A stretch of 64,000 bases of DNA from an uncultured Gammaproteobacteria bacterium (GTDB lineage Bacteria; Pseudomonadota; Gammaproteobacteria; JAIEPX01). How positions within the stretch are numbered: position 1 is the first letter of the stretch; every line of letters begins with the position of its first letter. Shown here piece by piece: positions 10,905 through 44,256 of the stretch. The translations under genes were made by a program, and so were the position numbers. The notes beneath the pieces were generated by a model that did no database searches, was not told the DNA's origin, and was given only the letters and a program-made list of their open reading frames with translations. The stretch covers positions 140,150 through 204,149 of the forward strand of contig CAZMLO010000002.1 of assembly GCA_964567285.1 (NCBI GenBank). The letters are read 5' to 3'.

Positions 10905-11419
10905 ACTTGATCTTATGCGGCTATCATTGTTCTGGAAAAACAACTATCGCCAAAGCCTTTTCAATAAAATACGATTACCATTATATTGATACTGACGATC
11001 TTGTTGCTCGAGCAAAAGGCCTAAAAGATTCTCGTGCCGTTCATACACTATTAGGTGAAGAGGACTATCGTTCTTTTGAAAAAAGCATTGTGCATTCCCT
11101 AAAAGATATCAATAATACCATAATAGCCACTGGAGGGGGTGTTTTATTAAATAGTGAAAACACGCACCATCTCAAGACATTGGGTAAAATAATTTATTTA
11201 TACGTTGAAACAGAGACACTACGGCAAAGAATCTTAGAAAAAAAATCACTCCCTAACTTTATCCGTGAATCCTCCTTCGATGAAGATTTCAAACGCTACA
11301 TCGATAGCCGCAAAACACTCTATGATTCTGAAGCAGACATTAAACTCAATGTAACAGAAAAATCTGTCGAAGAAATCTTATCCTTAATTAACCAGTACAG
11401 GTCTGATCATGGCATCTAA
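10901..11419 (+). CDS. aroK: shikimate kinase
   Basis: 172 aa. It has the Walker A motif GYHCSGKTT, a DTD motif and GGG...L, typical shikimate kinase architecture. It sits within the aro block. Confidence 0.8.
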   Translation: MNLILCGYHCSGKTTIAKAFSIKYDYHYIDTDDLVARAKGLKDSRAVHTLLGEEDYRSFEKSIVHSLKDINNTIIATGGGVLLNSENTHHLKTLGKIIYLYVETETLRQRILEKKSLPNFIRESSFDEDFKRYIDSRKTLYDSEADIKLNVTEKSVEEILSLINQYRSDHGI

Positions 11420-12491: not shown

Positions 12492-12561
12492 GAATGAATA
12501 TGACTGCCAACTACTTGCCCCTAAATGAAAGGTCCCTATTTCACCTAAAAGAGGAGAAATA

Positions 12562-24739: not shown

Positions 24740-24967
24740 ATGCAACACACCAAAATTTTTAAATCTGGCAACTCTTGGGCTGTACGACTACCAAAAAACT
24801 TTCAATTTCGCGAAAATGAAGTTGAGATCTTTAAACGAGGAAATGAGGTAGTGATACGTGATCTTCGGCATAATTTGAAGGATGCTTTCACCCTACTGAC
24901 ACAACTGCCTGAGGATTTTTACCATAGCCCAAGAGTAGATACACCTCCCCAAGAAAGAGAATTTTGA
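24740..24967 (+). CDS. vapB: antitoxin VapB (AbrB/MazE-fold SpoVT-AbrB domain)
   Basis: KIFKSGNSWAVRLPKNF is the swapped-hairpin DNA-binding motif. It is 75 aa. Its stop overlaps the vapC start (ATGA). Confidence 0.8.
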   Translation: MQHTKIFKSGNSWAVRLPKNFQFRENEVEIFKRGNEVVIRDLRHNLKDAFTLLTQLPEDFYHSPRVDTPPQEREF

Positions 24968-25389
24968 TCATGGCGTTACGCTATCTACTCGATACTAATA
25001 TTTGTATTTATATTGCTAAAAAAAGGCCCGCATCAGTATTGAGTCGATTTGAAAATCTCTCTGTCGGAGAAGTCGGCATGTCCACTATAACTTATGGAGA
25101 ATTGATTTTCGGTGCCCAAAAAAGTCAACATCCTAAAAAAACCCTACAAATTATTGATGAAATCAGTAGCTTAATCCCACCTTTACCTATCGCCACCGAC
25201 ACAGGAAAATTCTACGGTAAGATCCGAACAACATTAGAAAAACAAGGAAAAATTATAGGTAATAACGATTTATGGATTGCAGCACACACCCTCTCACTCA
25301 ATATTACCTTAGTAACTAACAACACCAAAGAATTCGCCAGAATACCGCACCTAAAGTTAGAAAATTGGGTTGAAAAAACTTCTCACTGA
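24964..25389 (+). CDS. vapC: PIN-domain toxin VapC
   Basis: LLDTNICIY (first acidic residue), ...E..., and NNDLWIAAHTL (conserved D) form a PIN quartet. It is 141 aa. Confidence 0.85.
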   Translation: MIMALRYLLDTNICIYIAKKRPASVLSRFENLSVGEVGMSTITYGELIFGAQKSQHPKKTLQIIDEISSLIPPLPIATDTGKFYGKIRTTLEKQGKIIGNNDLWIAAHTLSLNITLVTNNTKEFARIPHLKLENWVEKTSH

Positions 25390-25447: not shown

Positions 25448-27799
25448 CTATTTCAATTCATACCGATTTGCATCTTCAATAAGTAGCACTGCATCATACA
25501 GCGCTGAAACATCTTCAGACTTTTTAATGATGGTTTCAGATGAGGCTGTTTGAGATTCAGAGAGCTGATCTAGCTCTCTTTGGCCATGATCTCGAAGAGC
25601 TTCAAGTTTAGCTTTATCTTCAGCTGTAACTTTTGCCGCAGCAAACCAAGATAATCGGGGAAATCCATCAGCGTGTTGATATAGGGCTTTGGGGCGTCGA
25701 GAGGTATCTTTCACATTTTGAAGTTCATGGAATAAGACAACGGTGACGTGTTTAAAATTGTGTTGATCTAACCATTTTCGTAGTATCAGAGCATGTTCAC
25801 GGGTATCGGTTGCAACCATTTGAATATCGATACCGAATTTTATAGGACGTTTTGCACGATATTCTTTACAATAATCAGAATTTAATATAGTCATTACTTC
25901 AGCATTATCACTGATTAGAATAAGTGGAAAATTCCGTGTGAGCAAATCACATTTCTGCGGATTCTCAAAAATATTATCGGGTTTTGTTTGTGTCAGCTTT
26001 CTCAGCATTTCAAGATGTTGTTCCATAACAACCAAGTGTTCTTTAGCTGGTTCATAAGAAGTAAAAGGGTTGTACAAACGCCATCCAACAAAGAAGTAAA
26101 GGATCCTCGTGCTATATTCATTTTGTAAAGTCACTTTAAAAAAATCATATTCTCTTTCAAATCTTGAGCAATCTCTGCGATTTTCTAAAACTTTCACCAT
26201 TGAGATAGCGGGATCATCACAGTCAGGTACTGGAAACAGAGGGAGACACTTTGCTAGATTTTCAGGGCTAGGATTTTGGTAGATGGCTCTAAGGTCTAAT
26301 CTCGATGCTAAAATTCTCTGAACAAAATGTTTAAATTGATAATGATCCTGAACCCATTGTGAAATATCTTTGTGATTTTTGAAATCTGGATTAACCTCAA
26401 AATATTCTGCAACTAGTAATAAAAGATAATAGGTATCCACCCCAGCTTTATATTCTGCATAAAATGCATCGGGAGCAATAAGTTCTTCATCACTCACCCC
26501 AAAAAATTTAGCTCTCATATAGTAGATCAGAACAGAATTAATAGTAGCATAGGAGTTATTTCTAGATTTCTCCAAAAACTCCCGGAATTTCATCAGTGCA
26601 TTTTGCCGGTGAACTTCAGGTCTTGATTGAGTTGGCTCTCCTTTTGTATAGCTATCAATAATTCTTTTGAGGTCATAACCACGCCATTGATGTAATTTGC
26701 CAAAGCACATCAAAGGACTTGAATTAAGCGTTGTATTGTGACCCGTACCTGCATAGAGCTCACCCGTCAATGAGGTAAGTCCCCTACCTAATAAGCCCGT
26801 TAATGAATCGAGTTCATAACTTGACCTTTCGAGCATAATTAACATCGAAGATTGAGTACCATGAAGAAAGGGATCAAACATAGGTTCTACGCTTGCCAAT
26901 TCGGTGCAGAGCAAAGGCTCATTTTGAAAAAATCGTTTAAAATAAGGTGTAGTTGTCATCATATCAGCAGCAAGAGCCGAAACCACATTGGGAGCATGTT
27001 CGAATAATACTTTTCGTGCCATAATCAAATGATCACCTTCAAAATCGGTCTTGGCTGTACTGCCATCAGGCATAATAATACGACAAGGATATCTCATATC
27101 ACCTTGCAGATAGATCACACGGTGAGCATTGAGAACCAATTCAAGAAAGGCCGGCTGATATTTCTGTGTATCAACTTTATATTCAGGAACAACGGCTAAA
27201 CGTTTAAGCACTTGATTGAATTCAAAATGGCTAACGCAACGTATTATATCGATGCAATCAGCTAAATTAATTAAAAGGCGTATATAGTGTGCAAATTGAG
27301 GCATTCCTGCTTTTTTCAAATGTGCTTCAAAGGCATCGGCTTTATCTTTGTTCCCTGCCGCTTGCTCAAAAAATTCAGCCATATCAGAATTAGCACCCGT
27401 ACCGTCTAAAAACCGCACTAATTTTTGTGCACTTTGTTTATCCCAGAAATCCTGCCCTTCATCCAATCGAGCAGAGTCATGATAAATAGCTGCCATACGA
27501 GTCGTATCAACGAGCTCTTTTTCGTCTAAATCGAATTGTTGTTTAATGCATTCAAGGGCCCCACTCACATAGCCTGGAAAATTTTCTTTAAATAATTGAT
27601 GTAGTACAACAACCCACAAACTGGCTCGCCCAACGTGCATCCCACCATGAATCGGCCTCTCAATATACCCATCCTTCCGGTTTTCCTTTTTTGGTCTGAG
27701 CCGATAATGTCTACCATCAAATCGGGGTAAATGCTCAAGATACTCAGTTTCAATGGCTGCTTGGGCGTCTTTATAAAATTCGATACGCATCTTTTTCAT
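25448..27799 (-). CDS. large hypothetical protein, 783 aa, no recognised family; candidate secreted effector
   Basis: Long ORF with AGAGG RBS 7 nt upstream. The N-terminal region has IHGGMHVGR...LH...(about 50 aa)...YHDSAR...D, which loosely resembles an HD-type metal-binding motif set. The C-terminal 40 aa is acidic and coiled. Confidence 0.65.
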   Translation of the reverse strand: MKKMRIEFYKDAQAAIETEYLEHLPRFDGRHYRLRPKKENRKDGYIERPIHGGMHVGRASLWVVVLHQLFKENFPGYVSGALECIKQQFDLDEKELVDTTRMAAIYHDSARLDEGQDFWDKQSAQKLVRFLDGTGANSDMAEFFEQAAGNKDKADAFEAHLKKAGMPQFAHYIRLLINLADCIDIIRCVSHFEFNQVLKRLAVVPEYKVDTQKYQPAFLELVLNAHRVIYLQGDMRYPCRIIMPDGSTAKTDFEGDHLIMARKVLFEHAPNVVSALAADMMTTTPYFKRFFQNEPLLCTELASVEPMFDPFLHGTQSSMLIMLERSSYELDSLTGLLGRGLTSLTGELYAGTGHNTTLNSSPLMCFGKLHQWRGYDLKRIIDSYTKGEPTQSRPEVHRQNALMKFREFLEKSRNNSYATINSVLIYYMRAKFFGVSDEELIAPDAFYAEYKAGVDTYYLLLLVAEYFEVNPDFKNHKDISQWVQDHYQFKHFVQRILASRLDLRAIYQNPSPENLAKCLPLFPVPDCDDPAISMVKVLENRRDCSRFEREYDFFKVTLQNEYSTRILYFFVGWRLYNPFTSYEPAKEHLVVMEQHLEMLRKLTQTKPDNIFENPQKCDLLTRNFPLILISDNAEVMTILNSDYCKEYRAKRPIKFGIDIQMVATDTREHALILRKWLDQHNFKHVTVVLFHELQNVKDTSRRPKALYQHADGFPRLSWFAAAKVTAEDKAKLEALRDHGQRELDQLSESQTASSETIIKKSEDVSALYDAVLLIEDANRYELK

Positions 27800-27995
27800 T
27801 GTAAAACCTCTGTTTAGATCTTTTCATACGGCGTTCTTAAGGGACCAAAACCTCAAATAATCACAGCGCATTAACTAAGATAATGGCCGTTTCATAGAAA
27901 TATTTACCACAATAACATATTAATTGGCATGTGTCACTAACGAAAGAAGGCTTTAGGAAGCTATATTGGTTGGGAGACCTTCTCTGAGGTGTAAT

Positions 27996-29807
27996 TTACT
28001 TTTTAGAATGTGGCGATTTTTTCTTTTTTGGCGCTGACTTCTTTTGCTTAGTGAGTGTGTATTGGATTTTCACGTAGGAACCTGGCGCGTTTTCAAGGGG
28101 GGGGAATTGTTTGGAGCCAGGTTTTCTAGCCTCAACTTTTTTGCCGCTATAGGATTTCAGCCATTTTTCCCAGTGCGGCCACCACGAGCCCTCAAGTTTC
28201 TTGGCATTTTCTAGAAACTCCTCAGGGGTATTATGAGTTTCTGTGTTAATAAAATAGCCGTATTTTTTCTTGGTTGGTGGATTGACTACTCCAACGATAT
28301 GCCCTGAATCCCCAAGTACAAATGTCGTTTTACCTGAATGGAGTGGCAAACCCGCATAAGTCGATTTCCAAGGCGTGAGATGATCCCGAATTGTCGAAAA
28401 AAAATATGCCGGCAATTTGATTGAGTGTAGGTCAATCTTAGTATTATTAATCGATAATTTTTTGGGTTTGATGAGGTCATTGTTAATGACAAAATTTTTC
28501 AGGCAATACCTCATCACTTTTGGTGGTATGTTGGTGTAGTCTGAGTTCCAAAACAAAAGATCATTTTCTCCGGGCGACTGTCCCTGCAGGTAATTTTTTA
28601 TATAGTAAGGCCAGACCAAGTCATTCGGACGTAGAAAATTAAATATCTGATGTAATAGATAGCCATCAAGATATCCTTGTTTTTTCATTATCTTTTCAGT
28701 TTTTTTGATGTAGTCCTCGTCTATAAAGTCAGTGAAAAATCCAAAGTTTTGAAAATCTAGCATAGTGGTTAGATAGGTTACAGATTTAATGGAATCATCA
28801 TTTTTTGCGCTAAGATAGGCTAAAGCACAGGCTACTAGAGTACCACCGATACAATATCCTGCAATATTAATTTTTGGCATCCCTGTTATTTTCTTAATAA
28901 CTTCAATTGCCGCAATCGGTCCATCGAGTACATAATCTGAAATCTCTTTGTTCGAGAAAGAAGCATCCGGGTTAACCCATGATATGCTAAAAACCGTATA
29001 GCCTTTTTTGACCATCCATTCAATCAATGAGCTCTGCGCGTTAAGATCTAAAATATAAAACTTATTAATGATCGCAGAGACAAAAAGTAATGGTGTCTCA
29101 TGTACCGTTTTGGTCTGAGGTTCATATTGAATGAGCTGGATAAGGTCGTTTTGAAAGATAACTTTACCAGGTGTAGTCGCTATATTTTCACCCAAGATAT
29201 AATGTTCGCGGTTAACCATGGGTATCAGCAAGTGATTGGGGTCTTTTGAGAGATCTCGTTCTAAATTTTGTAACCCCTTTATTAGACTATCCCCATGGGT
29301 TAAAATGACTTCTTGCAATAATACGGGATTGGTAAAAAGATAGTTACTCGGTGAAATAGCCCCCATTACCTGCTCTAATAAATAATGTAATTGATTAATC
29401 GCTTTTTTGTTCTTCGCATTTATCCTGGACAAATCAATCGCTTTTTCCGTGTAATTTTCTAATATCAAATGTGATTTCGCTAGAAATTCGAAGAAAGGAT
29501 GTATTGTCCAGAGTTCATTTGAAAACCGCTTATCTTCTATTTTTTCACTTTTTTTTCCTGAGGATGGTGAGATGCTAGTTTGAATAACCTTATTGAATAG
29601 GGAGATATAGTCTTGAAACATTGGCATCATAATTTCTTCAAGAAATTCTTTCCCTATTTTATCACTCACATTGGGTTGATTCATGAACAACGAGAGGTCT
29701 TCGGAGAAAAAATTTTGATCTTGTAGTTTTTTAACAAGCTGCAAAATGTTTCCCGTTAATTCCGAGAAGGGGTCTCTAGAATTAGGCGGGGTGGTTGATC
29801 GGCTCAT
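27996..29807 (-). CDS. phaC: class I poly(3-hydroxyalkanoate) synthase
   Basis: 603 aa alpha/beta hydrolase with the lipase box GYCIGGT, conserved D and H downstream and a PhaC N-terminal domain. It has an unusual Lys-rich tail, KQKKSAPKKKKSPHSKK. Confidence 0.9.
   Translation of the reverse strand: MSRSTTPPNSRDPFSELTGNILQLVKKLQDQNFFSEDLSLFMNQPNVSDKIGKEFLEEIMMPMFQDYISLFNKVIQTSISPSSGKKSEKIEDKRFSNELWTIHPFFEFLAKSHLILENYTEKAIDLSRINAKNKKAINQLHYLLEQVMGAISPSNYLFTNPVLLQEVILTHGDSLIKGLQNLERDLSKDPNHLLIPMVNREHYILGENIATTPGKVIFQNDLIQLIQYEPQTKTVHETPLLFVSAIINKFYILDLNAQSSLIEWMVKKGYTVFSISWVNPDASFSNKEISDYVLDGPIAAIEVIKKITGMPKINIAGYCIGGTLVACALAYLSAKNDDSIKSVTYLTTMLDFQNFGFFTDFIDEDYIKKTEKIMKKQGYLDGYLLHQIFNFLRPNDLVWPYYIKNYLQGQSPGENDLLFWNSDYTNIPPKVMRYCLKNFVINNDLIKPKKLSINNTKIDLHSIKLPAYFFSTIRDHLTPWKSTYAGLPLHSGKTTFVLGDSGHIVGVVNPPTKKKYGYFINTETHNTPEEFLENAKKLEGSWWPHWEKWLKSYSGKKVEARKPGSKQFPPLENAPGSYVKIQYTLTKQKKSAPKKKKSPHSKK
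28097..28104. repeat. G8 homopolymer inside the 3' end of phaC (C8 in mRNA, codons F-P-P-L)
   Basis: Read directly. It is improbable by chance in a 40% GC sequence. Confidence 0.8.
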
Positions 29808-29816
29808 TTTGTTCTT

Positions 29817-30131
29817 TTAGCGCTTATCGCTAGACTTCTGTGTTGGTTCCATAGAGGTGAAATCTTTTAATCCGTTCATGTAGCGTGAGATAATATCTCC
29901 AGATTTTTGCATATAGCTCATTAGCTCTATGCCACTACTGGCAGTAACTTTCAATTGTAACGCCACAAGATCTTCAGGTTTTTTTACATTTTTAATCTCT
30001 GAAAGATAATCTCTCTGAACGATATTATTGATATTACTCAACACCTTGGTGTTTAGCTCTGTCAGTTCTGTAGTACTATCAATGATGTGTTTATTGAATT
30101 TCTTGACTTTATCATCTAATTTCTCGGCCAT
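29817..30131 (-). CDS. phaP: phasin family protein (PHA granule-associated)
   Basis: About 104 aa, amphipathic helical (MAEKLDDKVKKFNKHIIDSTTELTELNTKVLSNINNIVQ...). A GGAAGGGGA RBS is present. It lies between phaC and phaB. The start is taken at the internal Met. Confidence 0.65.
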   Translation of the reverse strand: MAEKLDDKVKKFNKHIIDSTTELTELNTKVLSNINNIVQRDYLSEIKNVKKPEDLVALQLKVTASSGIELMSYMQKSGDIISRYMNGLKDFTSMEPTQKSSDKR

Positions 30132-30214
30132 AACACTCCCCTTCCAGCGTAAATGGTTAATTAATCTCCCATGCAGTAAATGTAGCACAGTTTTGGTATT
30201 AAGCAATTTAATGC

Positions 30215-30961
30215 TTAAATCATATACTGGCCGCCATTAATGGTTAGATTCGAGCCTGTGATGAATCCACTGTTCTCAGATGCCAGAAAACAAACTGCTC
30301 GTGCGATTTCTTCGGGTTTACCAAGTCGTCCAAGAGGAATTTGCGAGACAATTTTCTCAATGACCTCCTCTTTCATTTTCATGACCATAGTTGTAGCGAT
30401 ATAGCCAGGAGAAATGGTATTGACGGTAATTCCTTTATTGGCAACCTCAAGGGCTAAGGCTTTTGTAAATCCATGAATACCTGCTTTTGACGCAGAATAA
30501 TTTGTTTGCCCATATTGTCCCTTTTGACCGTTAATCGATGAGATATTAATAATACGGCCATAACGGCGATTTATCATATTATTAATCACTTGACGGGTAA
30601 TATTGAAAAGGCTATCTAAATTCGTGTGAAGAACAGATTCCCATTGCTTCTGATCCATTTTATAGAATGGCGTATCAGCGGTAATTCCTGCGTTATTAAC
30701 TAAGATATCTATTCTCTGGCCCTTTTCACCCATTGTCTGTATAAGCGCTTCACAGGATTCAAAATCGGTGACATTGACATAATAAATATCAAATTCATAG
30801 CCGTTTTTAAGCTGTTCTGCTTGCCATTGCTTTGCTGATTCATGATCACCCTGACGAAAATAGGTAGCGATAACCTCTGCCCCTTCGTCAAAAAGATGCT
30901 GACAAATTGAAGTGCCAATACCACCTAAACCACCAGTCACTAATGCTATTTTTCCCTTCAT
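30215..30961 (-). CDS. phaB: acetoacetyl-CoA reductase (SDR)
   Basis: MKGKIALVTGGLGGIGTSIC, NAG, and YSASKAG catalytic Tyr/Lys are present. An AGGAG RBS precedes it. Confidence 0.85.
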   Translation of the reverse strand: MKGKIALVTGGLGGIGTSICQHLFDEGAEVIATYFRQGDHESAKQWQAEQLKNGYEFDIYYVNVTDFESCEALIQTMGEKGQRIDILVNNAGITADTPFYKMDQKQWESVLHTNLDSLFNITRQVINNMINRRYGRIINISSINGQKGQYGQTNYSASKAGIHGFTKALALEVANKGITVNTISPGYIATTMVMKMKEEVIEKIVSQIPLGRLGKPEEIARAVCFLASENSGFITGSNLTINGGQYMI

Positions 30962-30974
30962 AAAAACTCCTGCA

Positions 30975-31721
30975 TTATTTATTGGCTAAGTAATCTTCTG
31001 CAACTTCACCATAAGGCAAGGTTAGGTCAGTAATAAAATGCACGGCTGAGATTATTTTTTTAACCGGTAATTCTGCAATCGGCGCTAATGCATGGGGGTG
31101 AAGTTCAAGACTTGATGGTCCTACCCAGGCTCCTTTAACGGTAATATCTTGTAGATAAGTTTTGGTGAGTTGATTTATTTGAGGTTTGCCATCAACCCCA
31201 GGAATATTCTTCAGTAAGAAAATGGGTTTCTGACAAACTTTTAAAATAGCCTCTTTGTCAGCCTCATGGTGTTTATATCCCATGGTAGCCGTAGCGATGC
31301 GCACGCTACCATAATCCAGAGTACCCACCAAAGTGTCTTCTTCTACCGCTAATTTTGGTTTGCCCAGTTTTTTGGGGAATCCCCAAATCTCACGTCCGCC
31401 CGCAATAGGGGGAAAGCAATTGAGGAACATCGCTACGGTAAATGTACCTTCTTCACCTTTATGCCGAACAGGAATGACTTGTCCTGATTCCGTAAAATCA
31501 CCGAAACCCGTCGAATCGGGCATACGTATAAATTCGAATTTCACGTGGGGTGCAACGAGCTCTAAGCCTGGTGGTAGAATCGCTTCCAAGATCGCAGGGT
31601 CAGTTTCATAGGTGATAATAAAAAACTCTCGATTGATAAAACGATAAGCCCCATGTGGATAGCTCATAATCCAGCGTGGGGCTGGCATTTCAAATTCATT
31701 CGTTATGGTATTTTTCGGCAC
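30975..31721 (-). CDS. adc: acetoacetate decarboxylase family protein
   Basis: 248 aa with blocks AMFLNCFPP and [10 protein letters not shown], the length and motifs of the ADC family. Confidence 0.75.
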
Positions 31722-31875
31722 AGTCCTCTCCTTGGTTGTGTCGGGTATAGTAGAAAGCTAGCTGCCTGAGGAGAGAAAGTCAAATTCTACCTGCTCTCTA
31801 GACCTTTTTAGTGATCAGTGGATTTCAAAAAATTAGACTATAATTCTAAGGAGACGCTAATTAGGAGGGAACGTT

Positions 31876-32658
31876 ATGAAGCTAGCGGATAAAGTAGCTC
31901 TTGTCACAGGAGCTGGTAGTGGAATCGGAAAAGAAATTGCCTTATGTTTTGCTCGCGAGGGCGCAAAAATTGGTGTGGCTGATATTACAGCTGAAACCGC
32001 TAATGCGACCCTAAAAGAAATTAACGATTTGGGTGGAAAAGCCATCAGCATCATCATGGATGTCAGTGATGAAGCTCAAGTAGATGCAGGTGTTGCTCTA
32101 TTAATCAATGAATTTGGATATGTTGATATTTTAATCAGTAATGCAGGTGTACAGCATATTGCTCCCATCGATGAGTTAGCCCTAAAAGATTGGAAAAGAA
32201 TGATGGGGATCCATTTAGATGGAGCCTTTTTAACAACACGTGCTTGTTTGAAAGCAATGTATCAAAAAGACAGGGGCGGTTGTATTATTTATATGGGCTC
32301 TGTTCATTCAAAAGAAGCTTCAAAACTCAAGGCACCCTATGTTACTGCTAAACACGGTCTGATAGGACTCTGCAAAGTTGTGGCAAAAGAAGGTGCAGCA
32401 CATGGAGTTCGAGCGAATGTTATTTGCCCAGGATATGTGCGCACCCCACTCGTTGATAAACAAATTCCAGAACAAGCCAAAACATTAGGGATCAGCGAAG
32501 AAGACGTTGTAAAAAAGGTGATGCTGGCAAATACTGTTGATGGCGAGTTCACAACTGTTCAAGATATCGCAAATTTGGCTTTGTTTTTTGCATCATTCCC
32601 CGATAATGCTCTCACTGGACAATCCTTGATTGCGAGTCATGGCTGGATAATGGAATAG
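31876..32658 (+). CDS. bdhA: D-3-hydroxybutyrate dehydrogenase (SDR)
   Basis: [28 protein letters not shown], and PGYVRTPL are present. A GGAGGG RBS precedes it. Confidence 0.85.
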
Positions 32659-32660
32659 CC

Positions 32661-33692
32661 ATGAAAAAAAAGAAAAAAAAAATTAATTTAGGATTACAAG
32701 GCGGCGGAGCACATGGTGCCTTTGCCTGGGGTGTATTAGATTACTTACTAGAAGATGGGCGTTTAGAAATAGACGGCCTCAGTGCTACCAGTGCAGGTTC
32801 TGTCAATGCCGCAGTACTAACCAGTGGCTTGGTCAACAATGATAAAGATGAGGCAAGACAAAAACTACATGAATTCTGGCTAGCCATTAGTCAGAGTCAA
32901 AATGGCAGTATGCTAAGTTCTTCGTACAATTTACATAACTTTTCTGATGAGGCTGCAGAATATAGTTTATCAAATTCGCCTTTTTACAAGATGTTTGATC
33001 TAGTATCCCATGTCATGTCGCCTTATCAATTTAATCCATTTAATATCAACCCATTAAAAGAGATTATAGAAAAGCATGTCGATTTTGATGCCATCAACAA
33101 AAATAAAAAAATAAAGCTTTTTTTATGTGCAACAAATGTTGAAACCTGTAAAGTAAAAATTTTCTCCACACCCGATATCTCTGTTGATACAGTATTGGCA
33201 TCGGCCTGTTTACCCTTTCTGTTCCAAGCGGTAGAGATTAATGGGGAGTATTTCTGGGATGGTGGCTATATCGGTAATCCAGCCATTTTTCCATTGATTT
33301 ATAGCTGTGATTCTACCGATGTTATTATCGTACATATCAATCCGATTTTTCGGCCTGGTGTGCCTAAGACCTCGAGTGAAATTCTTAATCGTATTAATGA
33401 AGTCAGTTTTAATTCCTCATTAATGCGAGAAATGAGAGCCATAGCCTTTGTCTCAAGCTTGATAGACAAGAAAATAATAAAAGAGCATGCCATGAAAAAA
33501 ATGCTAATACACTCTATCCGCTCTGATGAAGATATGACAAAATTTGACGTTTCAAGCAAAATGAACACCGATTGGAAATTCTTAACCTATCTCAGAGATA
33601 GAGGCAGAACCGTGGCTAAGCAATGGATAAAAAAGAATTATGATAAAATAGGCATAGAATCCTCAATTGATATTCGAGGAGAATTTTTATAG
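32661..33692 (+). CDS. patD: patatin-like phospholipase
   Basis: GLQGGGAHGAF (oxyanion), GLSATSAGS (GxSxG) and a catalytic DGG(Y) are present. It begins 2 nt after bdhA. The N-terminus MKKKKKKI is encoded by an A8-G-A10 tract. Confidence 0.85.
   Translation: MKKKKKKINLGLQGGGAHGAFAWGVLDYLLEDGRLEIDGLSATSAGSVNAAVLTSGLVNNDKDEARQKLHEFWLAISQSQNGSMLSSSYNLHNFSDEAAEYSLSNSPFYKMFDLVSHVMSPYQFNPFNINPLKEIIEKHVDFDAINKNKKIKLFLCATNVETCKVKIFSTPDISVDTVLASACLPFLFQAVEINGEYFWDGGYIGNPAIFPLIYSCDSTDVIIVHINPIFRPGVPKTSSEILNRINEVSFNSSLMREMRAIAFVSSLIDKKIIKEHAMKKMLIHSIRSDEDMTKFDVSSKMNTDWKFLTYLRDRGRTVAKQWIKKNYDKIGIESSIDIRGEFL
32664..32682 (+). repeat. homopolymeric A8-G-A10 tract inside the first 7 codons of patD
   Basis: Read directly: ATGAAAAAAAAGAAAAAAAAAATT. 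Confidence 0.8.
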
Positions 33693-33849
33693 AAAAAGCT
33701 CAAATAGTCTGCCAATAAACATAAGACCTCGAGATCGCTTTTTGGATGAATAGTGACAAAATGTCGGTTCACTGAAATTAGAGCCTGTGGACAGTAAAAA
33801 ATACCAAAAAGACATCGGAAATGTCATTCAACTAAATTCATCACCTGAA

Positions 33850-35049
33850 TCAAGTAAGCCATTCACATACATTAATGATGTGACCAAAATAATCTAACTC
33901 AATGACCTCTGTACTTACTTGGTTAGCGTGTATTAATACCGGAATGCAAGAGAATCCATACGGCAGTTTCAAACGACTTATTTTTTCCATCATAGAATTG
34001 ACGACATTGACACCGAGTTGATTTCTGGAAAACTTTATTTCACAAATGTAGAGCGTTTTAAATTTTGTTTGAATAAGGTAATCAATTTGGCAGCCTTTTT
34101 GCTGTGTTGTCTTGGTTTGTAAAAAAGGGCCATCCATCACTATCTCAGCTGGATTTATGCCCAGTGATTGATATATCATTTTGGAATTATTGATGACATA
34201 ATTTTCAAATTGCAAGCCCATATTAGTGTCCCAACCAGCTAAAGATGTGATATCAATACCAATGTATTTACCCTTATTAATTTTGCTTAGACTGGGCTCT
34301 ATGTTTTTCAAATAAAACTTTAGATAGCTATCTCGAAGCCTATATCTAGCATTTTTTTTCATTTCATTGAGCGACTTTAGATCCCAAAGAAAGTTTTGCA
34401 CAACGAATCCTGAACTCATTAACTCTTCCAAATATTCAGTCAGAACGCCACTACGAGAGTAGTTAAGTTTTTTTGCAATCCCCTCATGTGTCATTGGGCC
34501 ATTTACTAACTCCATAACAATTCGTTTCTGAATGTCTTTTCTTCTCTCTTTAAAAAGATCGTTGAAGATATAACCAAATTCTTTTACTAATAAAGCATCT
34601 TTTGTGAAACATAGATTTTGAATGTTTTCACTTGCTGAAAGAGTTGAATTAATTTGCTCTATATACCAAGGGATGCCCCCTGTAATGGATAACAACATCA
34701 ATTTTTCAAATGCAGATCGCTTGAATCCAATATCATTTAATAATTCATTGCATTCTTTAATCGTAAGTTCTTCTAAATTTATTTCTAAAGAAACACGCCC
34801 AAAGTATCCAGTGCTACTTAAAATATTTTCTTCTATCCATGCCGATATTGAGCCACAGATGATAAGTGTTAGTTTCGGATTGTTACTGAAGAACTTTTCC
34901 CATGCATAATGTAGCTTACCTAAAAAGTCAGGATCTTTTGAGCCCATCCAAGTTATTTCATCTAAAACTACAAAGACTTCGCCATGCGATGTTCTCTCGT
35001 TTAGTAATACAAATAGTTCACTCCAATCATCTGTAGTAATTTTTGGCAA
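33850..35049 (-). pseudogene. 5'-truncated ATPase of the Arch_ATPase/DUF234 family (Walker B retained, P-loop missing)
   Basis: The translation begins VFVVLDEITWM (Walker B) with a DUF234-like C-terminus. No GxxxxGK[ST] is present. The reading frame hits a stop 37 codons upstream of the TTG used as start. Confidence 0.5.
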
Positions 35050-35672
35050 CCCAGTCTGTGTGTGTAGTTGAAGTGCAAAGTGATCACGCTGTGATTGTGC
35101 TGTGGTATTCTTGTTCGGCGCTAAACCGATGAAAGAGTAAGTTATATAACCTGTTAAATCTTACTCTATACCACTAAAACATTATATTGAGTAAGATAGA
35201 ATTGAAGAGCCCCCATCACTATCTTCAATAAACCTAATTGTACCGGGGTTATTGCCATATTTAGCATGCTTGCATTCTGGGACAATTTGGAAAAGCGTTG
35301 GATCCTAATTGCCAGGATACGTACCCCCACCGCCCCCTCTTCTTCCTTTCAGTCCAGAACACTCGATAATTTTACCTTTAAACTTCAATTGCCTAAATAC
35401 CAGCCAAATCTACAGAGACTTGCTTTTGCTAAAAGATATACGTGTCTCCATCAAAATCCCCAAAATTGTACTAAACTTAAACTAACGGGGCAATAAGCCT
35501 CGACAGCAGTGAAGGAGCAGCGACGGTCAGGCAAGGAGCATGGGACCAGGTTAATTAGGCGCATTATTCTTATTGGGTAGATCCCAGAGAGTACATGGCT
35601 TCCAGGGCATTAGCTTGGAAGTTACTCACCTACAAAGCACCGCCTTTAGGTGGGGTGAGATGCTCATAAGTA

Positions 35673-37368
35673 TTGATGAGGAGGTTTGCTATGAAATCAT
35701 TAATTAATACTAAATATATTGGGGGGGGTAAGCCATTACTCCCAAGTATCAACCATTTTGAAACCATTAAGCCAGCGTTAGAGGAGAACGCTGAAAACTC
35801 GGGAGTATTATCGTTTGGGCGTGCTTGCTTGCTGGGCTTGCTGTCAGCGGTACTACTCAATATCTCGCTACTCAGTTTTGCAGGTAATGATAATAACAAC
35901 GACCCAAACCAGGCCGGACCTTATAAAATCGGTTACCGGCAAACCAATCTTACGGATACCTCAAGAACAGCGGGCGCAGATGCCGGTGGGCGAGTGCTCG
36001 AAGTGTCGGTTTGGTATCCGATCAGTGATAAGACGGCCAAAGGCGGGATTCCCGTTGTCTATGACCATTCCACAGGTTCAGTGGTAACTTATGGAATACC
36101 TCCCTTACATTTGACGAATCGGCCTACCCGTTTCAACCAGCGGTCGCTTCCCCGTGTTGGGATTGTCTCATGGAGGTGCTTTACAACAAAAAGATTATTC
36201 AGTACTCGCTGAACACCTGGCAAGTCATGGTTATATAGTAGCAGCACCCAGACATTCAGGTAATTCTGGCCCTGATACTCTTACCTACGCTTTGACCGGC
36301 GGATTGACCTGCGGTGCTTTACCCGTTCGCCCTTGCCATGATTCGGGAAACGTTCCAGCCTTAAATAGCCCCCAAGATGTGAGCTTTGCTCTGGATAAGG
36401 TTTTTGATGGGACCCTAGGCTCTGATCTGAAAGCCGCTGCGGATAAACACCGAGTCGGTGTATTTGGTCACTCCTTTGGTGGCTATACATCTTTGATGTT
36501 GGCGGGTGGTTTAGAAAGTGACGAAGGGAGTTTGATGGCGGGTGATCTCGCTGATCCTCGTATTGGAGCCATGGCAGCACTCTCAGGTGTATATGGGGAC
36601 CTTCCAGCATCGTCCGTAGCCCCTGCTATAAAACTGCCAAAACAGAATGCGGAAGCTATCCATATTCCATCAATGATTATGTACGGTGAGTATGAAACAA
36701 ATGTAAGAGGTATAGACCTAGCCGCGAGAGCGCGTGAAATCTTTGATCACCTAAACCCCGAGAAGACGGGCATTCAGTATCGCATTGTGGCTAAGGGCGC
36801 AGTGCACTCGGCTTTTGGAAACTTATGCGATCAGGGGAATCTGGACATTGTGAGGCTAGGAAACGATAATCCGACTGGGATTGATGTTGGAATTTTAGCC
36901 TTACTCTTCACATCGGATTCACGTGTACCTCCTTCTCCACCAACCTTAACAGGTAAAACAGACGGTGGTTTTCAAGCGTATTGCCAAAATAGATTTTTCT
37001 ACGGAACATCAACCTCTGTACAGGGAGTTCCCGGTACCTTTCCATCAAATAGGAACATTTGGGATGCATTAACTCTCCCACTACCTGCACCTCCCGGAAT
37101 AACGCTGGGTAGTTTATTATTGAATAACCCTCCTTTCTCGATCCCTTTGAATAATTTGCCTGGCTTCATTGATCCGGATACCTTCCAGTTTGTGCCTACC
37201 AAGTCGTCTGATGAGATCCAAAACCTCACCAACGGCTACTTGGTTTCATTTTTCAATAGCACGTTGAAAGGTCAGTCTCAATATCAACGCTTTATCAAAG
37301 GCAATGGCAAGGCAGAGGTGGGGGTATGCACCCAAGCTGACGGTCATCGCAAATGTAAAATGCGATAA
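35673..37368 (+). pseudogene. alpha/beta hydrolase (PAF-acetylhydrolase/lipase-like, GHSFGG nucleophile elbow) disrupted by a frameshift near 36115-36150
   Basis: Frame 0 gives ...RVLEVSVWYP...VVTYGIPPLHL. Frame +1 continues ...RFPVLGLSHGGAL...HGYIVAAP...VGVFGHSFGGYTS. Both pieces belong to one hydrolase N-domain. A G8 tract lies at 35723-35730. The GC is about 52% versus about 40% locally. Confidence 0.55.
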
Positions 37369-38859: not shown

Positions 38860-39303
38860 CTATTCCGTTGTAACTGGAGCATCATCGTTTGCCAATGCGG
38901 CGATTAATGTATGCCATGCCAATGTTGCGCACTTTACGCGTGCCGGAAATTCCATGACACCCGCTAAGACTAATAATTTGCCCAATAAATCAGCATCATG
39001 TTGTTGGCCCATCATCAGTTGATGAAAATTTTCAAATATTTTTCGAGCTTGGTCTACTGTTTTTCCTCGAAGAATTTCAGTCATTAAAGAAGCGGAGGCC
39101 ATCGAGATCGCACAACCTGATCCTAAAAATTGGGCTTCTTTAATCTGATCATTGACAACATTTAAGCTCAATTCTAATTTATCACCACAGAGTGGATTAT
39201 GTCCCCTTTTTTGATGGGTTGGATGATCGAGCACACCCTGATTGCGAGGATGTCGGCCATGATCGATTATTACTTGTTGATAGAGCTCTCTTAATGCTGA
39301 CAT
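38860..39303 (-). CDS. sufU: SufU-type (IscU/NifU-N fold) sulfur acceptor/scaffold
   Basis: HNPLCGD...GSGCAISMASAS...(60 aa)...RVKCATLAWH. The long insert between Cys2 and Cys3 and the absence of LPPVK are hallmarks of SufU rather than IscU. Confidence 0.75.
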   Translation of the reverse strand: MSALRELYQQVIIDHGRHPRNQGVLDHPTHQKRGHNPLCGDKLELSLNVVNDQIKEAQFLGSGCAISMASASLMTEILRGKTVDQARKIFENFHQLMMGQQHDADLLGKLLVLAGVMEFPARVKCATLAWHTLIAALANDDAPVTTE

Positions 39304-40562
39304 TAGCCTAAAATCCCCCGCACTTCTTGAAGCCCTTCTATCAAACGATCAATTTCTTCCAGTGTATTGTAGAATGCAAAAGACGCTCTGACTGTTGCAA
39401 CCAAACCTAAACGCTCCATTAATGGCATTGCGCAATGATGTCCTGCACGTATCGCAATTCCTTGATGATCTAAAATGGTGCCTATATCGTGAGGATGAAT
39501 CGAATCCAATACAAAAGAAATCACCGGTGCTTTATTGGCTGCCGTTCCAATAATACGCAAACCTTCGAAAGCCGAAAGCTTTTTTGTGGCTGTCGCTAAA
39601 AGATTTTGTTCATGCGCGTGAATAAGAGAAAAATCTTGGGCATTTAAATAATCAATGGCAGCACCAAGCCCCACTGCTCCGGCAATATTCGGTGTACCTG
39701 CTTCAAATTTATAAGGCAAATCATTATAAGTTGATTGAGTAAAGCTGACTTCTTTAATCATCTCACCGCCGCCCTGATAGGGGGGCATTGCATTTAATAG
39801 TGATTCTTTGGCATACAAAACGCCGATACCAGTGGGCCCATAAACTTTATGCCCAGAAAAAACGTAAAAATCACAGTCTAGCGCCTGAACATCAATTTTC
39901 TGATGCGGAACAGCTTGTGCACCATCGACCAAAACCGGAATACGCTGCTGATGGGCTTTATCAATAATAGTGCGTATTGGATTTACTGTTCCGATAGCAT
40001 TAGAAACGTGTGTGATGGCCACTAGTTTTGTACGTTCATTGATTAAATCAAAAAAAGCATCCCAATCGCATTCACCGTTATCAAAAACAGGAACAACACG
40101 CAGAATCGCGCCTTTTTGTTGGCACAATAATTGCCAAGGCACAATATTGGCGTGATGCTCTAATGCCGTGATAATAATTTCATCCCCTGAAGACACCCCG
40201 ATTTGCCCGAAGCTGCTGGCGATAAGATTGATTGCTTCTGTTGCACCGCGGACAAAAACAATTTCACGCGTGCTTTTCGCATTTAAAAAATGACGGACTT
40301 TTTCTCGGGATTCTTCATAGGCATGCGTCGCTCGATCACTTAAGGTGTGAACACCGCGGTGCACATTGGCGTTGATGGTTTCATAGAAGTGTTTTTCTGC
40401 TTCAATAACTGCTTGGGGCTTTTGAGTGGTCGCGGCATTATCCAAATAAACCAATGAGTGCCCATGAATAGCTTGGTGCAATAAAGGAAAATCGTTGCGT
40501 GCTGTATTCACATCAAAGTGTTTCAAAGCACTTGTATTCAAAACGGGGGCCTTTGTTTTCAT
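39303..40562 (-). CDS. sufS: cysteine desulfurase, SufS subfamily
   Basis: A class V aminotransferase with HHANIVPWQ, SGHK (PLP Lys) and RAGHHCA. Confidence 0.9.
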   Translation of the reverse strand: MKTKAPVLNTSALKHFDVNTARNDFPLLHQAIHGHSLVYLDNAATTQKPQAVIEAEKHFYETINANVHRGVHTLSDRATHAYEESREKVRHFLNAKSTREIVFVRGATEAINLIASSFGQIGVSSGDEIIITALEHHANIVPWQLLCQQKGAILRVVPVFDNGECDWDAFFDLINERTKLVAITHVSNAIGTVNPIRTIIDKAHQQRIPVLVDGAQAVPHQKIDVQALDCDFYVFSGHKVYGPTGIGVLYAKESLLNAMPPYQGGGEMIKEVSFTQSTYNDLPYKFEAGTPNIAGAVGLGAAIDYLNAQDFSLIHAHEQNLLATATKKLSAFEGLRIIGTAANKAPVISFVLDSIHPHDIGTILDHQGIAIRAGHHCAMPLMERLGLVATVRASFAFYNTLEEIDRLIEGLQEVRGILG

Positions 40563-41581
40563 AAGTTTGAACTCTCATTTATCTGTGCTAACTTTTGCTC
40601 AATTAAGGGGCCAACCCACTGCTGAATCCAGGGTTCTGCTTCCGATAATTGATCTTGAATAAAGGCATTTAATAACATTTCACTGGCCTGCACCTGATCA
40701 ATACCTCGGGATTGTAAATAAAACAAAGCATCTGGATCGAGCTGCCCCACACTGGCACCATGAGTACATTTAACATCATCAGCATAAATTTCTAACTCGG
40801 GCCGTGTATTAATTTCGGCCTGTGCTGATAATAATAAATTTTGACTCAATTGATGCGCAGCGGCCTGCTGACCACTTGAAGGTACGACAACTTTACCCGT
40901 AAATCCGGTACGTGCTTTATCGGTAGCAATCGATTTAAAAACCTGCTCACTCGTGCAAGCACGCGCTAAATGGTTGAGTGTTAGTTGTGAATCGAGACGC
41001 TGGGTATTATTGGCAATCGCCAATCCTCGACAATGGCATCGTGCAGATTGGCCTGATAAATTGACTTGCCATTTTTCTTGATGAATCAGAGCTCCCAGCG
41101 AATAATGACTCGAATAAACCACAGAATCTTCAGCTTGATGGATCGAATATTCACCCAGATGCGTCGCCTTTAATCCTTCCTGCTGAACTTTAAGCAGATG
41201 AAGCGTAGACTGCTCAGCACAATGAATCTCAATAAGGGATTTTTGCTCATACGATAATTCAGCTTCACTCTGAAAATATTGTACAAAGGTTATTTCTGCT
41301 TTTTTGCCAACACGGATCACAGTATTAAAAAAGTGATTGGTGGATTCTTCGACTGTGCTAATATAATGAATCACAATAGGCTGATTAATGATGGTGCCTT
41401 CAGAAACCTGAATCTCCAGCGCCCCTTTTAAATGATCAATTTTAAGCCCTTCCGGAATAGCCAGATTTTCAGTGTTTAATTTTCCATCGATGAAGACCAG
41501 CCATATCGCTTCATTATGAAGCGAGTTCATTAGGCTGATTTGATTTTTTTGTGCATTCACCTTAATCACTCCACCAACCAA
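40559..41581 (-). CDS. sufD: Fe-S cluster assembly protein SufD
   Basis: 340 aa with a beta-helix SufBD C-terminal domain. It lies between sufC and sufS. Confidence 0.85.
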   Translation of the reverse strand: MVGGVIKVNAQKNQISLMNSLHNEAIWLVFIDGKLNTENLAIPEGLKIDHLKGALEIQVSEGTIINQPIVIHYISTVEESTNHFFNTVIRVGKKAEITFVQYFQSEAELSYEQKSLIEIHCAEQSTLHLLKVQQEGLKATHLGEYSIHQAEDSVVYSSHYSLGALIHQEKWQVNLSGQSARCHCRGLAIANNTQRLDSQLTLNHLARACTSEQVFKSIATDKARTGFTGKVVVPSSGQQAAAHQLSQNLLLSAQAEINTRPELEIYADDVKCTHGASVGQLDPDALFYLQSRGIDQVQASEMLLNAFIQDQLSEAEPWIQQWVGPLIEQKLAQINESSNL

Positions 41582-42309
41582 CCGTAACCTTTTTCTTCTA
41601 AGGTCAGCGCCAATTCTTTTCCGCCGGATTTAATAATCTGGCCGTTTGCTAAAACATGCACATAATCAGGAACAATAAAATCCAGCAATCGCTGATAATG
41701 GGTAACCACAATAAAAGAACGCGAGGGATCGCGTAAACTGTTTACGCCCTTCGCTACTGCCTGCAATGCGTCAATATCCAATCCTGAATCAGTTTCATCG
41801 AGGATCGCTAATTTTGGTTCTAAGACCATCATTTGTAAAACTTCATTGCGTTTTTTTTCTCCGCCTGAAAATCCATGATTCACAGCGCGTTGTAAAAAAG
41901 ATTCATCCATATCGAGCTCGCGCAATTTGGTGCGAACAAATTGCATAAAATCCATCGCATCGAATTCTGGTTCATTACGAGCGCGACGAAGGCTATTCAA
42001 AGCCGATCTCAAAAAATACATATTATTAACACCAGGCAATTCAACCGGATACTGAAAGGCTAAAAAGAGGCCTCTTATGGCTCGTTCTTCTGGTGATAAA
42101 GATAATAAGTCTGTATTGTCAAATTGCACAGAGCCCGCCCAAATATCATAACCTTCTCGACCCGACAAAATACTGGCCAAAGTGCTTTTACCAGAACCAT
42201 TGGGCCCCATAATGGCGTGAACTTCGCCCGGCTTAACTTCAAGATTAATGCCTTGTAATATCGGTTGCCCACCACTCACACTGACTTGTAAATTTTCTAT
42301 TTTTAACAT
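41566..42309 (-). CDS. sufC: Fe-S cluster assembly ATPase SufC
   Basis: Walker A GPNGSGKST, signature FSGGEKKR and Walker B ILDETDSGLD are present. Confidence 0.9.
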   Translation of the reverse strand: MLKIENLQVSVSGGQPILQGINLEVKPGEVHAIMGPNGSGKSTLASILSGREGYDIWAGSVQFDNTDLLSLSPEERAIRGLFLAFQYPVELPGVNNMYFLRSALNSLRRARNEPEFDAMDFMQFVRTKLRELDMDESFLQRAVNHGFSGGEKKRNEVLQMMVLEPKLAILDETDSGLDIDALQAVAKGVNSLRDPSRSFIVVTHYQRLLDFIVPDYVHVLANGQIIKSGGKELALTLEEKGYGWLVE

Positions 42310-42322
42310 GCTATTTTACCTC

Positions 42323-43774
42323 TTAACCTATGGAGCCTTCTAAACTGACTTCCATCAGTTTTTGAGCTTCTACTGCAAATTCTAGTGGCAACTCATTAAA
42401 GACCTGTTTACAAAATCCATTCACAATCAAGGAAATGGCATCTTCTTCACGCAATCCGCGTTGTTGACAATAAAATAATTGATCTTCACCGATACGAGAC
42501 GTTGAAGCTTCATGCTCCACATTCGCACTGGGATTTCTCACTTCAATATTCGGAAAGGTGTGCGCACCACAATGCGAACCAATTAACAATGAATCACACT
42601 GAGTATAATTCCTAGCATTTTTTGCAGTAGGTGCAACTCGAACTAAACCGCGATAAGCATTTTGCCCACGTCCTGCCGAAATGCCTTTTGAAATAATGGT
42701 GCTTTTAGTATTTTTTCCAATATGAATCATTTTTGTACCCGTATCGGCTTGCTGAAAATGATTGGTTAGGGCCACCGAATAAAATTCACCGACTGAATCA
42801 TCGCCTTGTAAAATCACACTGGGATATTTCCAAGTAATCGCAGATCCCGTTTCAATTTGAGTCCAGGAAATTTTCGAGCGAGCACCGCGACAAGCACCAC
42901 GCTTGGTGACAAAATTATAAATACCCCCTTTACCATTTTCATCGCCTGGATACCAATTTTGTACCGTTGAGTATTTAATGGTTGCATCTTCTAGAGCCAC
43001 TAACTCTACAACAGCAGCATGTAATTGATTTTCATCGCGCATGGGTGCCGTACAGCCTTCTAAGTAACTGACATGAGCACCTTCTTCAGCAATAATTAAA
43101 GTGCGCTCAAACTGTCCTGTATTCGCTGCATTAATGCGGAAATAAGTGGATAACTCCATCGGGCAACGAACGCCTTTAGGAATAAAAACAAAAGACCCAT
43201 CACTAAAGACTGCTGAATTTAAAGCAGCATAATAATTATCACGATAAGGCACTACGGTGCCTAAATATTTTTTAACTAATTCAGGATACTCTCGAACCGC
43301 TTCAGAAAAAGCACAAAAAATCACACCGGCTTCCGCTAATTTTTCTTTAAATGTTGTGGCCACAGAAACACTATCAAAAACCGCATCAACAGCCACACCA
43401 GCCAATCGCTCTCGTTCATGCAATGGAATGCCTAATTTATCGTAGGTTTCGAGCAATTTAGGATCGACTTCGTCTAAACTTTTGGGTTTATCTGCATCGG
43501 ATTTTGGCGCAGAATAATAAGCGATGGATTGAAAATCGATAGGCGGAAAATGAACATGAGCCCATTCAGGCGGTTTGAGCGTTAACCAATATTGATAGGC
43601 TTTTAATCGCCACTCTAGCATAAATTCAGGTTCGTTTTTTCTCGCTGAAATTTTGCGAATCACTTCTTCATCTAATCCTGGCGCAAAGGTATCGGATGCA
43701 ATTTCAGTGACAAATCCATGCTCATAGGATTTCTGCACAGCAGCAACAATTACCGCATTCCGCTCAGTACTCAT
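42323..43774 (-). CDS. sufB: Fe-S cluster assembly protein SufB
   Basis: About 483 aa SufB with conserved C-terminal blocks. The start MSTERN is chosen so its ATG overlaps the Rrf2 stop (ATGA). Confidence 0.9.
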
Positions 43775-44256
43775 ACCAAAGACTCCACACCAATATTTTT
43801 CAGCGCAGGATGACGCATCGGCAAAGGACGGCACATCTCTGCCAAAGTGATTTTATTCAACACCCCCAGTACTGCTCGATTCACCAACTGCCAATTACTG
43901 CGCAAGGCACAAATAGGTTCATGAGAACAATGCCCTGCCACCGCAGCGCATTCAGTCAGTCCAATAGGCCCATCTAATGCCAAAATAATTTCGACTACGG
44001 TGATCTCAGAAGCCGGTCGCACTAAGCGATACCCGCCCTTTACCCCTCGGAGTGACTCCACCAACCCACTTCCTACCAGCAATTTCAGCACCTTCGATAC
44101 CGTTGGCAAAGACACTTTGACCTGCACAGCAATATCCCTGGCACTGGCATGCATATAGGTATCTGCCGCCAAGCAGCTCATCACAATCAGGCCATAATCG
44201 GCCAGTTTACTCAATTTCAGCACAGTAGCCTTCGCAATAGTTGAACCCAAGACCAT
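43771..44256 (-). CDS. Rrf2-family transcriptional regulator (IscR/SufR-like, three-Cys cluster site)
   Basis: It has a wHTH N-terminus ([18 protein letters not shown]...[13 protein letters not shown]) and [14 protein letters not shown] (C-x6-C-x5-C). It is the first gene of the suf operon. The exact start is uncertain. Confidence 0.75.

Follow-up and report, generated by a model that had tools for sequence, protein, structure and literature searches.

Acetoacetate decarboxylase, 3-hydroxybutyrate dehydrogenase and PatD genes joined to polyhydroxybutyrate synthesis genes in an uncultured Legionella lineage

Why should a gene for an acetoacetate decarboxylase (ADC) lie between genes for the synthesis of polyhydroxybutyrate (PHB) and genes for the use of 3-hydroxybutyrate? 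The question is raised by a 64-kb stretch of DNA from an uncultured gammaproteobacterium (assembly GCA_964567285.1, contig CAZMLO010000002.1, positions 140,150 to 204,149), which we call the window, always meaning the whole stretch. Positions 27996–33692 of the window hold a cluster of six genes in two divergent groups. All six open reading frames (ORFs) claimed by a first-pass annotation of this DNA were found at its coordinates and on its strands, and the 154-bp spacer between adc and bdhA was confirmed. The gene names that it had proposed were right, five of them agreeing with curated models and the phasin remaining below the Pfam cut-off. The features, with lengths in amino acids (aa), are the following:

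phaC, 27996–29807, minus strand: class I polyhydroxyalkanoate (PHA) synthase, 603 aa, with a lysine-rich C-terminal tail
gene for a phasin-like small protein, 29817–30131, minus strand: 104 aa from the ATG at 30131, the mechanical ORF reaching the TTG at 30206
phaB, 30215–30961, minus strand: NADPH-type acetoacetyl-CoA reductase, 248 aa
adc, 30975–31721, minus strand: family-I acetoacetate decarboxylase, 248 aa, with a GTG start
adc/bdhA divergent intergenic region, 31722–31875, no strand: 154 bp, both ribosome-binding sites inside
bdhA, 31876–32658, plus strand: NAD-dependent (R)-3-hydroxybutyrate dehydrogenase, 260 aa
patD, 32661–33692, plus strand: PatD-type patatin-like serine hydrolase, 343 aa

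In a fusion specific to this lineage, the locus joins a conserved catabolic core, in which adc diverges from bdhA-patD, to the synthesis triad phaB-phasin-phaC. We consider it moderately probable that it works as a supercluster of PHB metabolism made of two known units, with an exit that would lead from PHB through 3-hydroxybutyrate and acetoacetate to acetone and CO2, a flux that we infer from the genes. An identical six-gene stretch occurs on independent metagenome contigs, with 100% protein identity, and a relative (L088) carries the six genes in the same order with proteins that are 65–88% identical; the cluster is therefore no assembly artefact. The nearest named relatives of ADC and PatD come from Legionella species (64–80% identity) and the window as a whole matches metagenome contigs only, which together point to an uncultured Legionella lineage.

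The product of adc aligns with nearly the whole of the family profile PF06314 (276 bits for a cut-off of 29.8, E = 4e-82, profile positions 3–238 of 238) and scores 383 bits against the acetoacetate decarboxylase model NF002614, whose cut-off is 150. Among solved structures, it shares 74% identity with the L. pneumophila ADC (3c8w, E = 4e-125), 60% over the full length with that of C. violaceum (3bgt) and 48% with that of C. acetobutylicum (3bh2). Residues R31, E63, E78, K117 and K118 are invariant in an alignment that includes these three enzymes, and correspond to R29, E61, E76, K115 (the Schiff-base lysine) and K116 of C. acetobutylicum. The GTG start lies 6–7 nt past AAGGAG, and the motif NEFxMPAPRW, between this GTG and an internal methionine, is kept in orthologues, so that both the long form of the protein and the 154-bp length of the spacer hold. 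The scores and the five catalytic residues bear out the family assignment made in the first pass, and those residues make its idea of a decarboxylative exit from acetoacetate a fair one. Judged by its sequence, the protein is a bona fide acetoacetate decarboxylase, another activity on the ADC fold being unlikely; homology supports its predicted conversion of acetoacetate to acetone and CO2, most closely through the 60% identity to the solved C. violaceum enzyme.

On the plus strand, BdhA passes the cut-offs of both NF009931 (389 bits against 340) and TIGR01963 (324 bits against 307), finds 6zzo and 4trr in PDB with E ~1e-107, and displays the motifs of short-chain dehydrogenases/reductases (SDR), namely TGAGSGIG, Ser142 and Y155xxxK159 (YVTAK). 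PatD matches the Pfam family Patatin (PF01734) with 88 bits for a cut-off of 27.7, and its oxyanion motif GGGAHG (residue 14), nucleophile Ser44 (ATSAG) and Asp200 (WDGG) are conserved in the patatin alignment. Its gene starts 2 bp past the bdhA stop, which is the place of PatD (lpg2317) in L. pneumophila, a comparison by position and not by sequence. The PatD family is ~60% identical across Legionella and Betaproteobacteria. Two metagenome contigs (L107, 5168–7810; L165, 5166–7793) carry a co-directional string of bdhA (TIGR01963 type), a PatD-type patatin gene and adc; the PatD subfamily therefore forms a three-gene module outside Legionella too. On another contig, which holds a L. steigerwaltii PatD-type protein (L094, 4870–7026), two tandem PatD-type patatin genes face adc. 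One of them (P0133) has WNGG for WDGG, with the catalytic Asp replaced, and may be an inactive paralogue.

On the minus strand, PhaC exceeds the cut-off of the class I model TIGR01838 (641 bits against 623), matches PhaC_N as well and falls far under the cut-offs of the class II and class III PHA synthase models. Among PDB entries it matches 9knj best (E = 1e-116), and its intact catalytic triad is conserved against this and other solved PHA synthases, with Cys319 in the lipase box GYCIG, Asp475 in DHLTPW and His503 in SGHI. PhaB scores 367 bits against TIGR01829 (cut-off 302), stays under the cut-offs of the FabG equivalog models and contains the SDR motifs TGGLGGIG, NNAG and YSASK. The phasin-like protein reaches 21.2–22.1 bits (E = 2–3e-4) with Phasin_2 (PF09361), whose gathering score is 24.9, and had no match in an NCBIfam scan; its L088 homologue also matches Phasin_2 weakly. 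A phasin is plausible, since the size of the protein and the place of its gene between phaB and phaC both fit, its family membership being unconfirmed by score. Its start is likely the ATG at 30131, giving 104 aa: this codon is preceded by a GGAG Shine-Dalgarno sequence, and gene callers assign 104 or 123 aa on the identical contigs. The lysine-rich tail of PhaC (TKQKKSAPKKKKSPHSKK, 27996–28060) runs past the aligned end of solved PHA synthases, and the N-terminus of PatD (32661–32685) reads MKKKKKK. Basic tails of this kind are reminiscent of those with which some granule proteins bind the nucleoid.

A neighbour-joining tree of Legionella ADCs separates two clades, and gene context tracks the tree. 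Clade B (L. shakespearei, L. impletisoli, L. steelei, F. gormanii, L. jamestowniensis and L. saoudiensis), ~60% identical to the window ADC, has a co-directional bdhA-(patatin)-adc layout. Clade A contains a first sub-clade (L. pneumophila, L. longbeachae, L. parisiensis and relatives, among them L. santicrucis and L086) whose sampled loci have a PatD paralogue (50–64% identity) after or facing adc and no bdhA within 10 kb; in L. longbeachae, L. parisiensis, L. santicrucis and L086 the paralogue follows adc and is ~50% identical. The second sub-clade of clade A, formed by the window, L088, L097, L084 and L096, has adc divergent from bdhA(-patD). In L096, L097 and L084 this core lies between mdh/hemN/plsY and a DEAD-box helicase gene and is free of pha genes. 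Only in the organism of the window and in L088, in a different chromosomal context, does phaB-phasin-phaC directly follow adc. Between these two, ADC shows the highest conservation among the six proteins (88% identity), followed by BdhA (84%), PatD and PhaB (82% each), PhaC (69%) and the phasin-like protein (65%).

The association of adc with bdhA and a patatin gene extends well beyond Legionella. One genome per GTDB species was scanned with an ADC alignment, which gave at least 586 hits. The counts given here refer to the best 80 of them, all from Alpha-, Beta- and Gammaproteobacteria; these 80 loci were searched with the six window proteins, and a gene within 2.5 kb was counted as linked. 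When both subfamilies are taken together, a BdhA was linked to adc in 56 of the 80 loci; a BdhA of the subfamily of the window (at least 55% identity) was linked in 43, always on the same strand as adc. The other BdhA subfamily shows 35–45% identity, and its sampled members pass the TIGR01963 cut-off. Patatin-like genes were linked in 53 loci, both partners in 44 and neither in 15. Unsupervised clustering of the neighbours returned ADC, patatin and BdhA as the only recurrent families. Since two BdhA and two patatin subfamilies are each paired with adc, functional coupling appears a better explanation than inherited synteny. The window has the same linkage, with bdhA 154 bp from adc and patD after bdhA. 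The first-pass annotation had regarded decarboxylation as an unusual sink for acetoacetate in PHB metabolism; the frequencies of BdhA and patatin genes near adc do not bear this out, nor do precedents from Methylosinus and L. pneumophila (PMC3615186, PMC5338858).

The modules of Dyella, Rhodanobacter, Bradyrhizobium, Cupriavidus and the second Legionella ADC clade place the same three activities side by side. In the other Proteobacteria, however, the genes are usually co-directional, BdhA is often of the TIGR01963 type and the patatin mostly belongs to the Patatin+DUF3734 subfamily (most non-Legionella modules, 26–30% identity to PatD), whereas the window is divergent and has a patatin of the PatD type. 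A further difference is the presence of phaB-phasin-phaC in the window: with a single possible exception, a phaB (at least 45% identity) or phaC homologue near adc in 1 of the 80 loci, those modules have no pha genes attached. Several Alpha- and other Proteobacteria carry a second ADC paralogue directly upstream of the main adc (L020, L035, L037 and L072, 9200–10730 in each; L082, 3–1256), 48–55% identical to the window ADC and part of a patatin-adc-adc-bdhA string. A literature search for the adc-bdhA-patatin linkage described as such found nothing.

What could these enzymes accomplish together? PhaB and PhaC would make PHB from acetoacetyl-CoA supplied by a thiolase encoded elsewhere. On mobilisation, an esterase would free (R)-3-hydroxybutyrate; PatD is a candidate for this step because Legionella has no recognisable PhaZ, and its substrate is presumed from context. 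BdhA would then oxidise 3-hydroxybutyrate to acetoacetate, yielding NADH, and ADC, as predicted from its sequence, would convert acetoacetate irreversibly into acetone and CO2 and so pull the reversible BdhA step forward. The presumed benefit would be reducing power obtained at no cost in ATP or in the succinyl-CoA that activation with CoA consumes. With ADC, this route is a linear exit and not a cycle. Nearly every window ORF of 150 aa or more was scanned with Pfam, the SUF block (39303–43834) being covered by the contig annotation, and no thiolase, classical PHB depolymerase (PhaZ), CoA-transferase or acetoacetyl-CoA synthetase was found in ORFs of at least 150 aa of the window. The first pass had spoken of a complete PHB cycle while itself stating that phaA and a depolymerase were absent; that absence stands, and the complete cycle is overstated, since an enzyme that activates acetoacetate is also absent from the window.

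Several of these links have been drawn before, mainly in L. pneumophila, whose adc (lpp0728/lpg0672) is a CsrA target with the highest value (113) among the energy and storage genes shown, and is up in a csrA mutant together with bdhA (lpp2264) and phaB (lpp0620/0621); the published metabolic model of this species draws Adc beside Bdh, PhbB and PhbC, and its genome has four PHA synthases and no identified PHB depolymerase (PMC5338858). According to PMC4549902, bdhA is RpoS-dependent and induced in water, and a bdhA-patD mutant keeps more of its PHB, with poor growth in amoebae and macrophages (citing Aurass 2009). Elsewhere, a published list of "PHB-degradation pathway genes" of Methylosinus trichosporium includes ADC (PMC3615186) and an acetone branch has been discussed for Cupriavidus (PMC11886801).

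L. pneumophila has the same three families within the same genus (bdhA-patD, lpg2316-lpg2317, and the ADC of structure 3C8W), with the patatin gene directly after bdhA; by locus tag, however, its adc lies far from bdhA-patD and its pha genes are dispersed, whereas in the window all are contiguous and adc heads phaB-phasin-phaC. The ADCs of C. violaceum (3BGT) and C. acetobutylicum (3BH2) are full-length homologues with the same catalytic residues, but the clostridial enzyme takes part in solventogenic fermentation, where a CoA-transferase supplies it, whereas the genomic partner of the window ADC is BdhA, which implies acetoacetate derived from 3-hydroxybutyrate. The classical phaCAB/phaCBA operons, such as that of Cupriavidus necator, resemble the minus-strand group in joining a class I PhaC and an acetoacetyl-CoA reductase in one string; unlike them, the minus-strand group lacks a phaA thiolase gene, has a phasin-like gene separating phaB from phaC, and starts with the gene for a catabolic decarboxylase. 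The proposed reaction sequence is identical to a synthetic one: E. coli engineered to turn PHB into acetone uses a PHB depolymerase, 3-hydroxybutyrate dehydrogenase and ADC for the same three steps (PMC11110063). That design relies on a secreted classical depolymerase and a clostridial ADC; the window would hold a natural version that works inside the cell and uses an esterase of the patatin type.

A number of points weigh against a PHB-to-acetone exit encoded in one supercluster. With decarboxylation, three of a monomer's four carbons are lost, an odd outcome when the compound is a reserve, and the searchable literature yielded no experiment on acetone formation by any Legionella. The adc gene lies in the synthesis operon and not in the degradation operon, and scanning, alignment, repeat search and folding identified no promoter, operator or conserved motif in the 154-bp region. 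The six-gene layout is kept in close relatives only, where descent predicts synteny, and the 80 ADC loci, besides being the best of at least 586, are not phylogenetically independent. Finally, among PatD-type patatins in metagenomes, 15 of 71 loci have an adjoining BdhA and 4 of 80 an adjoining adc, so that the link of PatD to 3-hydroxybutyrate is not universal; that these patatins are always linked to BdhA was rejected, BdhA being directly upstream in those 15 metagenomic loci only.

A broader proposal, which we put forward tentatively and regard as possible rather than probable, is that adc-bdhA-patatin is a widespread module of Proteobacteria that mobilises PHB or 3-hydroxybutyrate esters. 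The patatin would be the missing intracellular hydrolase of PHB or its oligomers in bacteria devoid of PhaZ, such as Legionella, and ADC would render the BdhA step irreversible, so that starving cells would gain NADH without expense of ATP or CoA and release acetone. In the window lineage, the module would have become connected to the genes for synthesis through a shared control region. Legionella is helped by its PHB reserves to survive in water over long periods and to be transmitted, and the cluster, together with the linkage across lineages, offers a concrete hypothesis with three enzymes, PatD, BdhA and ADC. The recurrent module nominates both the PatD-type and the DUF3734-type patatins as hydrolases of 3-hydroxybutyrate esters or PHB, and ADC as a physiological exit for PHB carbon; if true, it would be a natural template for the bioconversion of PHB to acetone. 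If instead the flux through ADC is small, the locus is a tidy arrangement of well-known genes. All six families are known, as is the connection of ADC with PHB and 3-hydroxybutyrate, and the cluster is thus a tidy variant of something ordinary.

Could the module serve ketone bodies in general? Under this explanation, adc-bdhA(-patatin) would not be specific to PHB and the adjacency of phaB and phaC would be an accident of the lineage; 3-hydroxybutyrate and acetoacetate would come from the host or the environment, or acetoacetate from the breakdown of leucine, lysine and fatty acids. We judge it unlikely, although it accounts well for the single locus in 80 with a phaB or phaC homologue near adc and for the related Legionella (L096, L097 and L084) that hold the core without pha genes. 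A route from leucine to acetone via ADC is described for Vibrio, and amoebal and mammalian hosts contain ketone bodies. PHB is nevertheless what accumulates in the bdhA-patD mutant of L. pneumophila, as told in PMC4549902 (citing Aurass 2009), and in the same species CsrA control is common to adc, bdhA, phaB and phbC (PMC5338858). Within the window lineage, moreover, adc is only 13 bp upstream of phaB.

The supercluster reading, to which we return, also supposes that the genes are expressed in concert. The cluster is likely transcribed in both directions from the one spacer, giving adc-phaB-phasin-phaC (minus strand) and bdhA-patD (plus strand), cotranscription within each being what we infer from the layout. 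A point overlooked in the first pass is that adc, 13 bp from phaB, is most likely cotranscribed with phaB-phasin-phaC and not with bdhA-patD. By analogy with L. pneumophila, both transcripts probably belong to the post-exponential/transmissive programme governed by RpoS and CsrA. The ribosome-binding sites of the spacer, AAGGAGAGGA for adc and AAGGAG...AGGAGG for bdhA, are rich in GGA and fit CsrA control, but this is weak evidence because any Shine-Dalgarno sequence contains GGA.

That the six genes might be merely adjacent, read from separate promoters with no coordinated regulation across what would be a plain spacer, seems improbable to us. The spacer speaks for this explanation: it contains no sigma-70 consensus sites and no shared motif, its repeats are pairs of 8–9 nt at chance level, and its alignment with the relatives L088 and L084 revealed a DNA conservation too weak to define operators. 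A scan of 27600–34100 for promoters and terminators stayed at or below the level of shuffled sequences, with no terminator-like sites on the coding strands of the cluster. The adc leader can fold so that the Shine-Dalgarno sequence pairs with an anti-Shine-Dalgarno sequence, but we claim no riboregulator because the energies of both leaders are no better than those of shuffles (z = +0.9 and +1.7). When the window was scanned with Rfam and for tRNAs, a tRNA-Leu at 776–862 was the only find. The 83-bp gap between phaB and the phasin-like gene could also house an internal promoter. The remaining gaps within the two groups (13 bp between adc and phaB, 9 bp between the phasin-like gene and phaC, and 2 bp between bdhA and patD) nevertheless leave little room for promoters or terminators, and even the dispersed orthologues of L. 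pneumophila are co-regulated by CsrA and RpoS (PMC5338858, PMC4549902).

It is very improbable that the ADC homologue has another activity in vivo, such as that of an aldolase-dehydratase like Sbi00515/MppR or the decarboxylation of another beta-keto acid: the superfamily does include non-decarboxylases and our literature search found no enzyme assay of any Legionella ADC, but 4zbo and 6eej match weakly, at E ~1e-5 only, a different ADC-fold activity (which the first pass had named as what could undo its proposal) was rejected on the full-length identity, invariant residues and model scores given above, and the constant partner, BdhA, has acetoacetate as its product.

The rest of the window encodes housekeeping functions (a trp and shikimate supercluster, FtsH, FolP, GlmM, SUF, sulfate activation and an AcrB-type pump), transporters and several large ORFs without a Pfam match. 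The supercluster (2475–15011, plus strand) unites on a single strand the entire tryptophan branch and the greater part of the shikimate pathway. It consists of trpE, trpG, trpD fused to trpC (576 aa), trpF fused to trpB (590 aa), trpA, the gene for DAHP synthase, aroA, aroK, aroC, aroB and aroD fused to aroE (454 aa). The mechanical ORFs of trpA and DAHP synthase have 121 bp in common. Three large genes on the plus strand (46947–51107, 55698–56963 and 57142–60162; 1386, 421 and 1006 aa) have no Pfam match at E <= 1e-6 and may be Legionella effector candidates.

Closer to the cluster, the gene for a 783-aa protein (25448–27799) follows phaC on the minus strand after 196 bp. The protein could be a lineage-specific one of effector-like kind, or its gene part of the phaC transcript; having no Pfam or PDB match, it was left out as a cluster member. 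Beyond patD, a 399-aa ORF with no Pfam match (33850–35049, minus strand) begins at a Walker-B-like VVLDEITW, and the ~600 bp upstream of it (35050–35672) are poor in ORFs; it may be the remnant of an ATPase truncated at its N-terminus. An alpha/beta hydrolase gene with faint PAF-AH/chlorophyllase-like matches follows, apparently split over overlapping frames (35673–36212 and 36154–37368, plus strand), which suggests a frameshift or a pseudogene; gene calls on a metagenome contig of independent origin (L090) give these two pieces as well. Just outside the other end of the cluster lies a PIN/VapC-like toxin ORF (24964–25389, plus strand), recognised by its sequence LLDTNICIY... alone. With this ORF on one side and the gene remnants on the other, the cluster seems to be set in a variable region.

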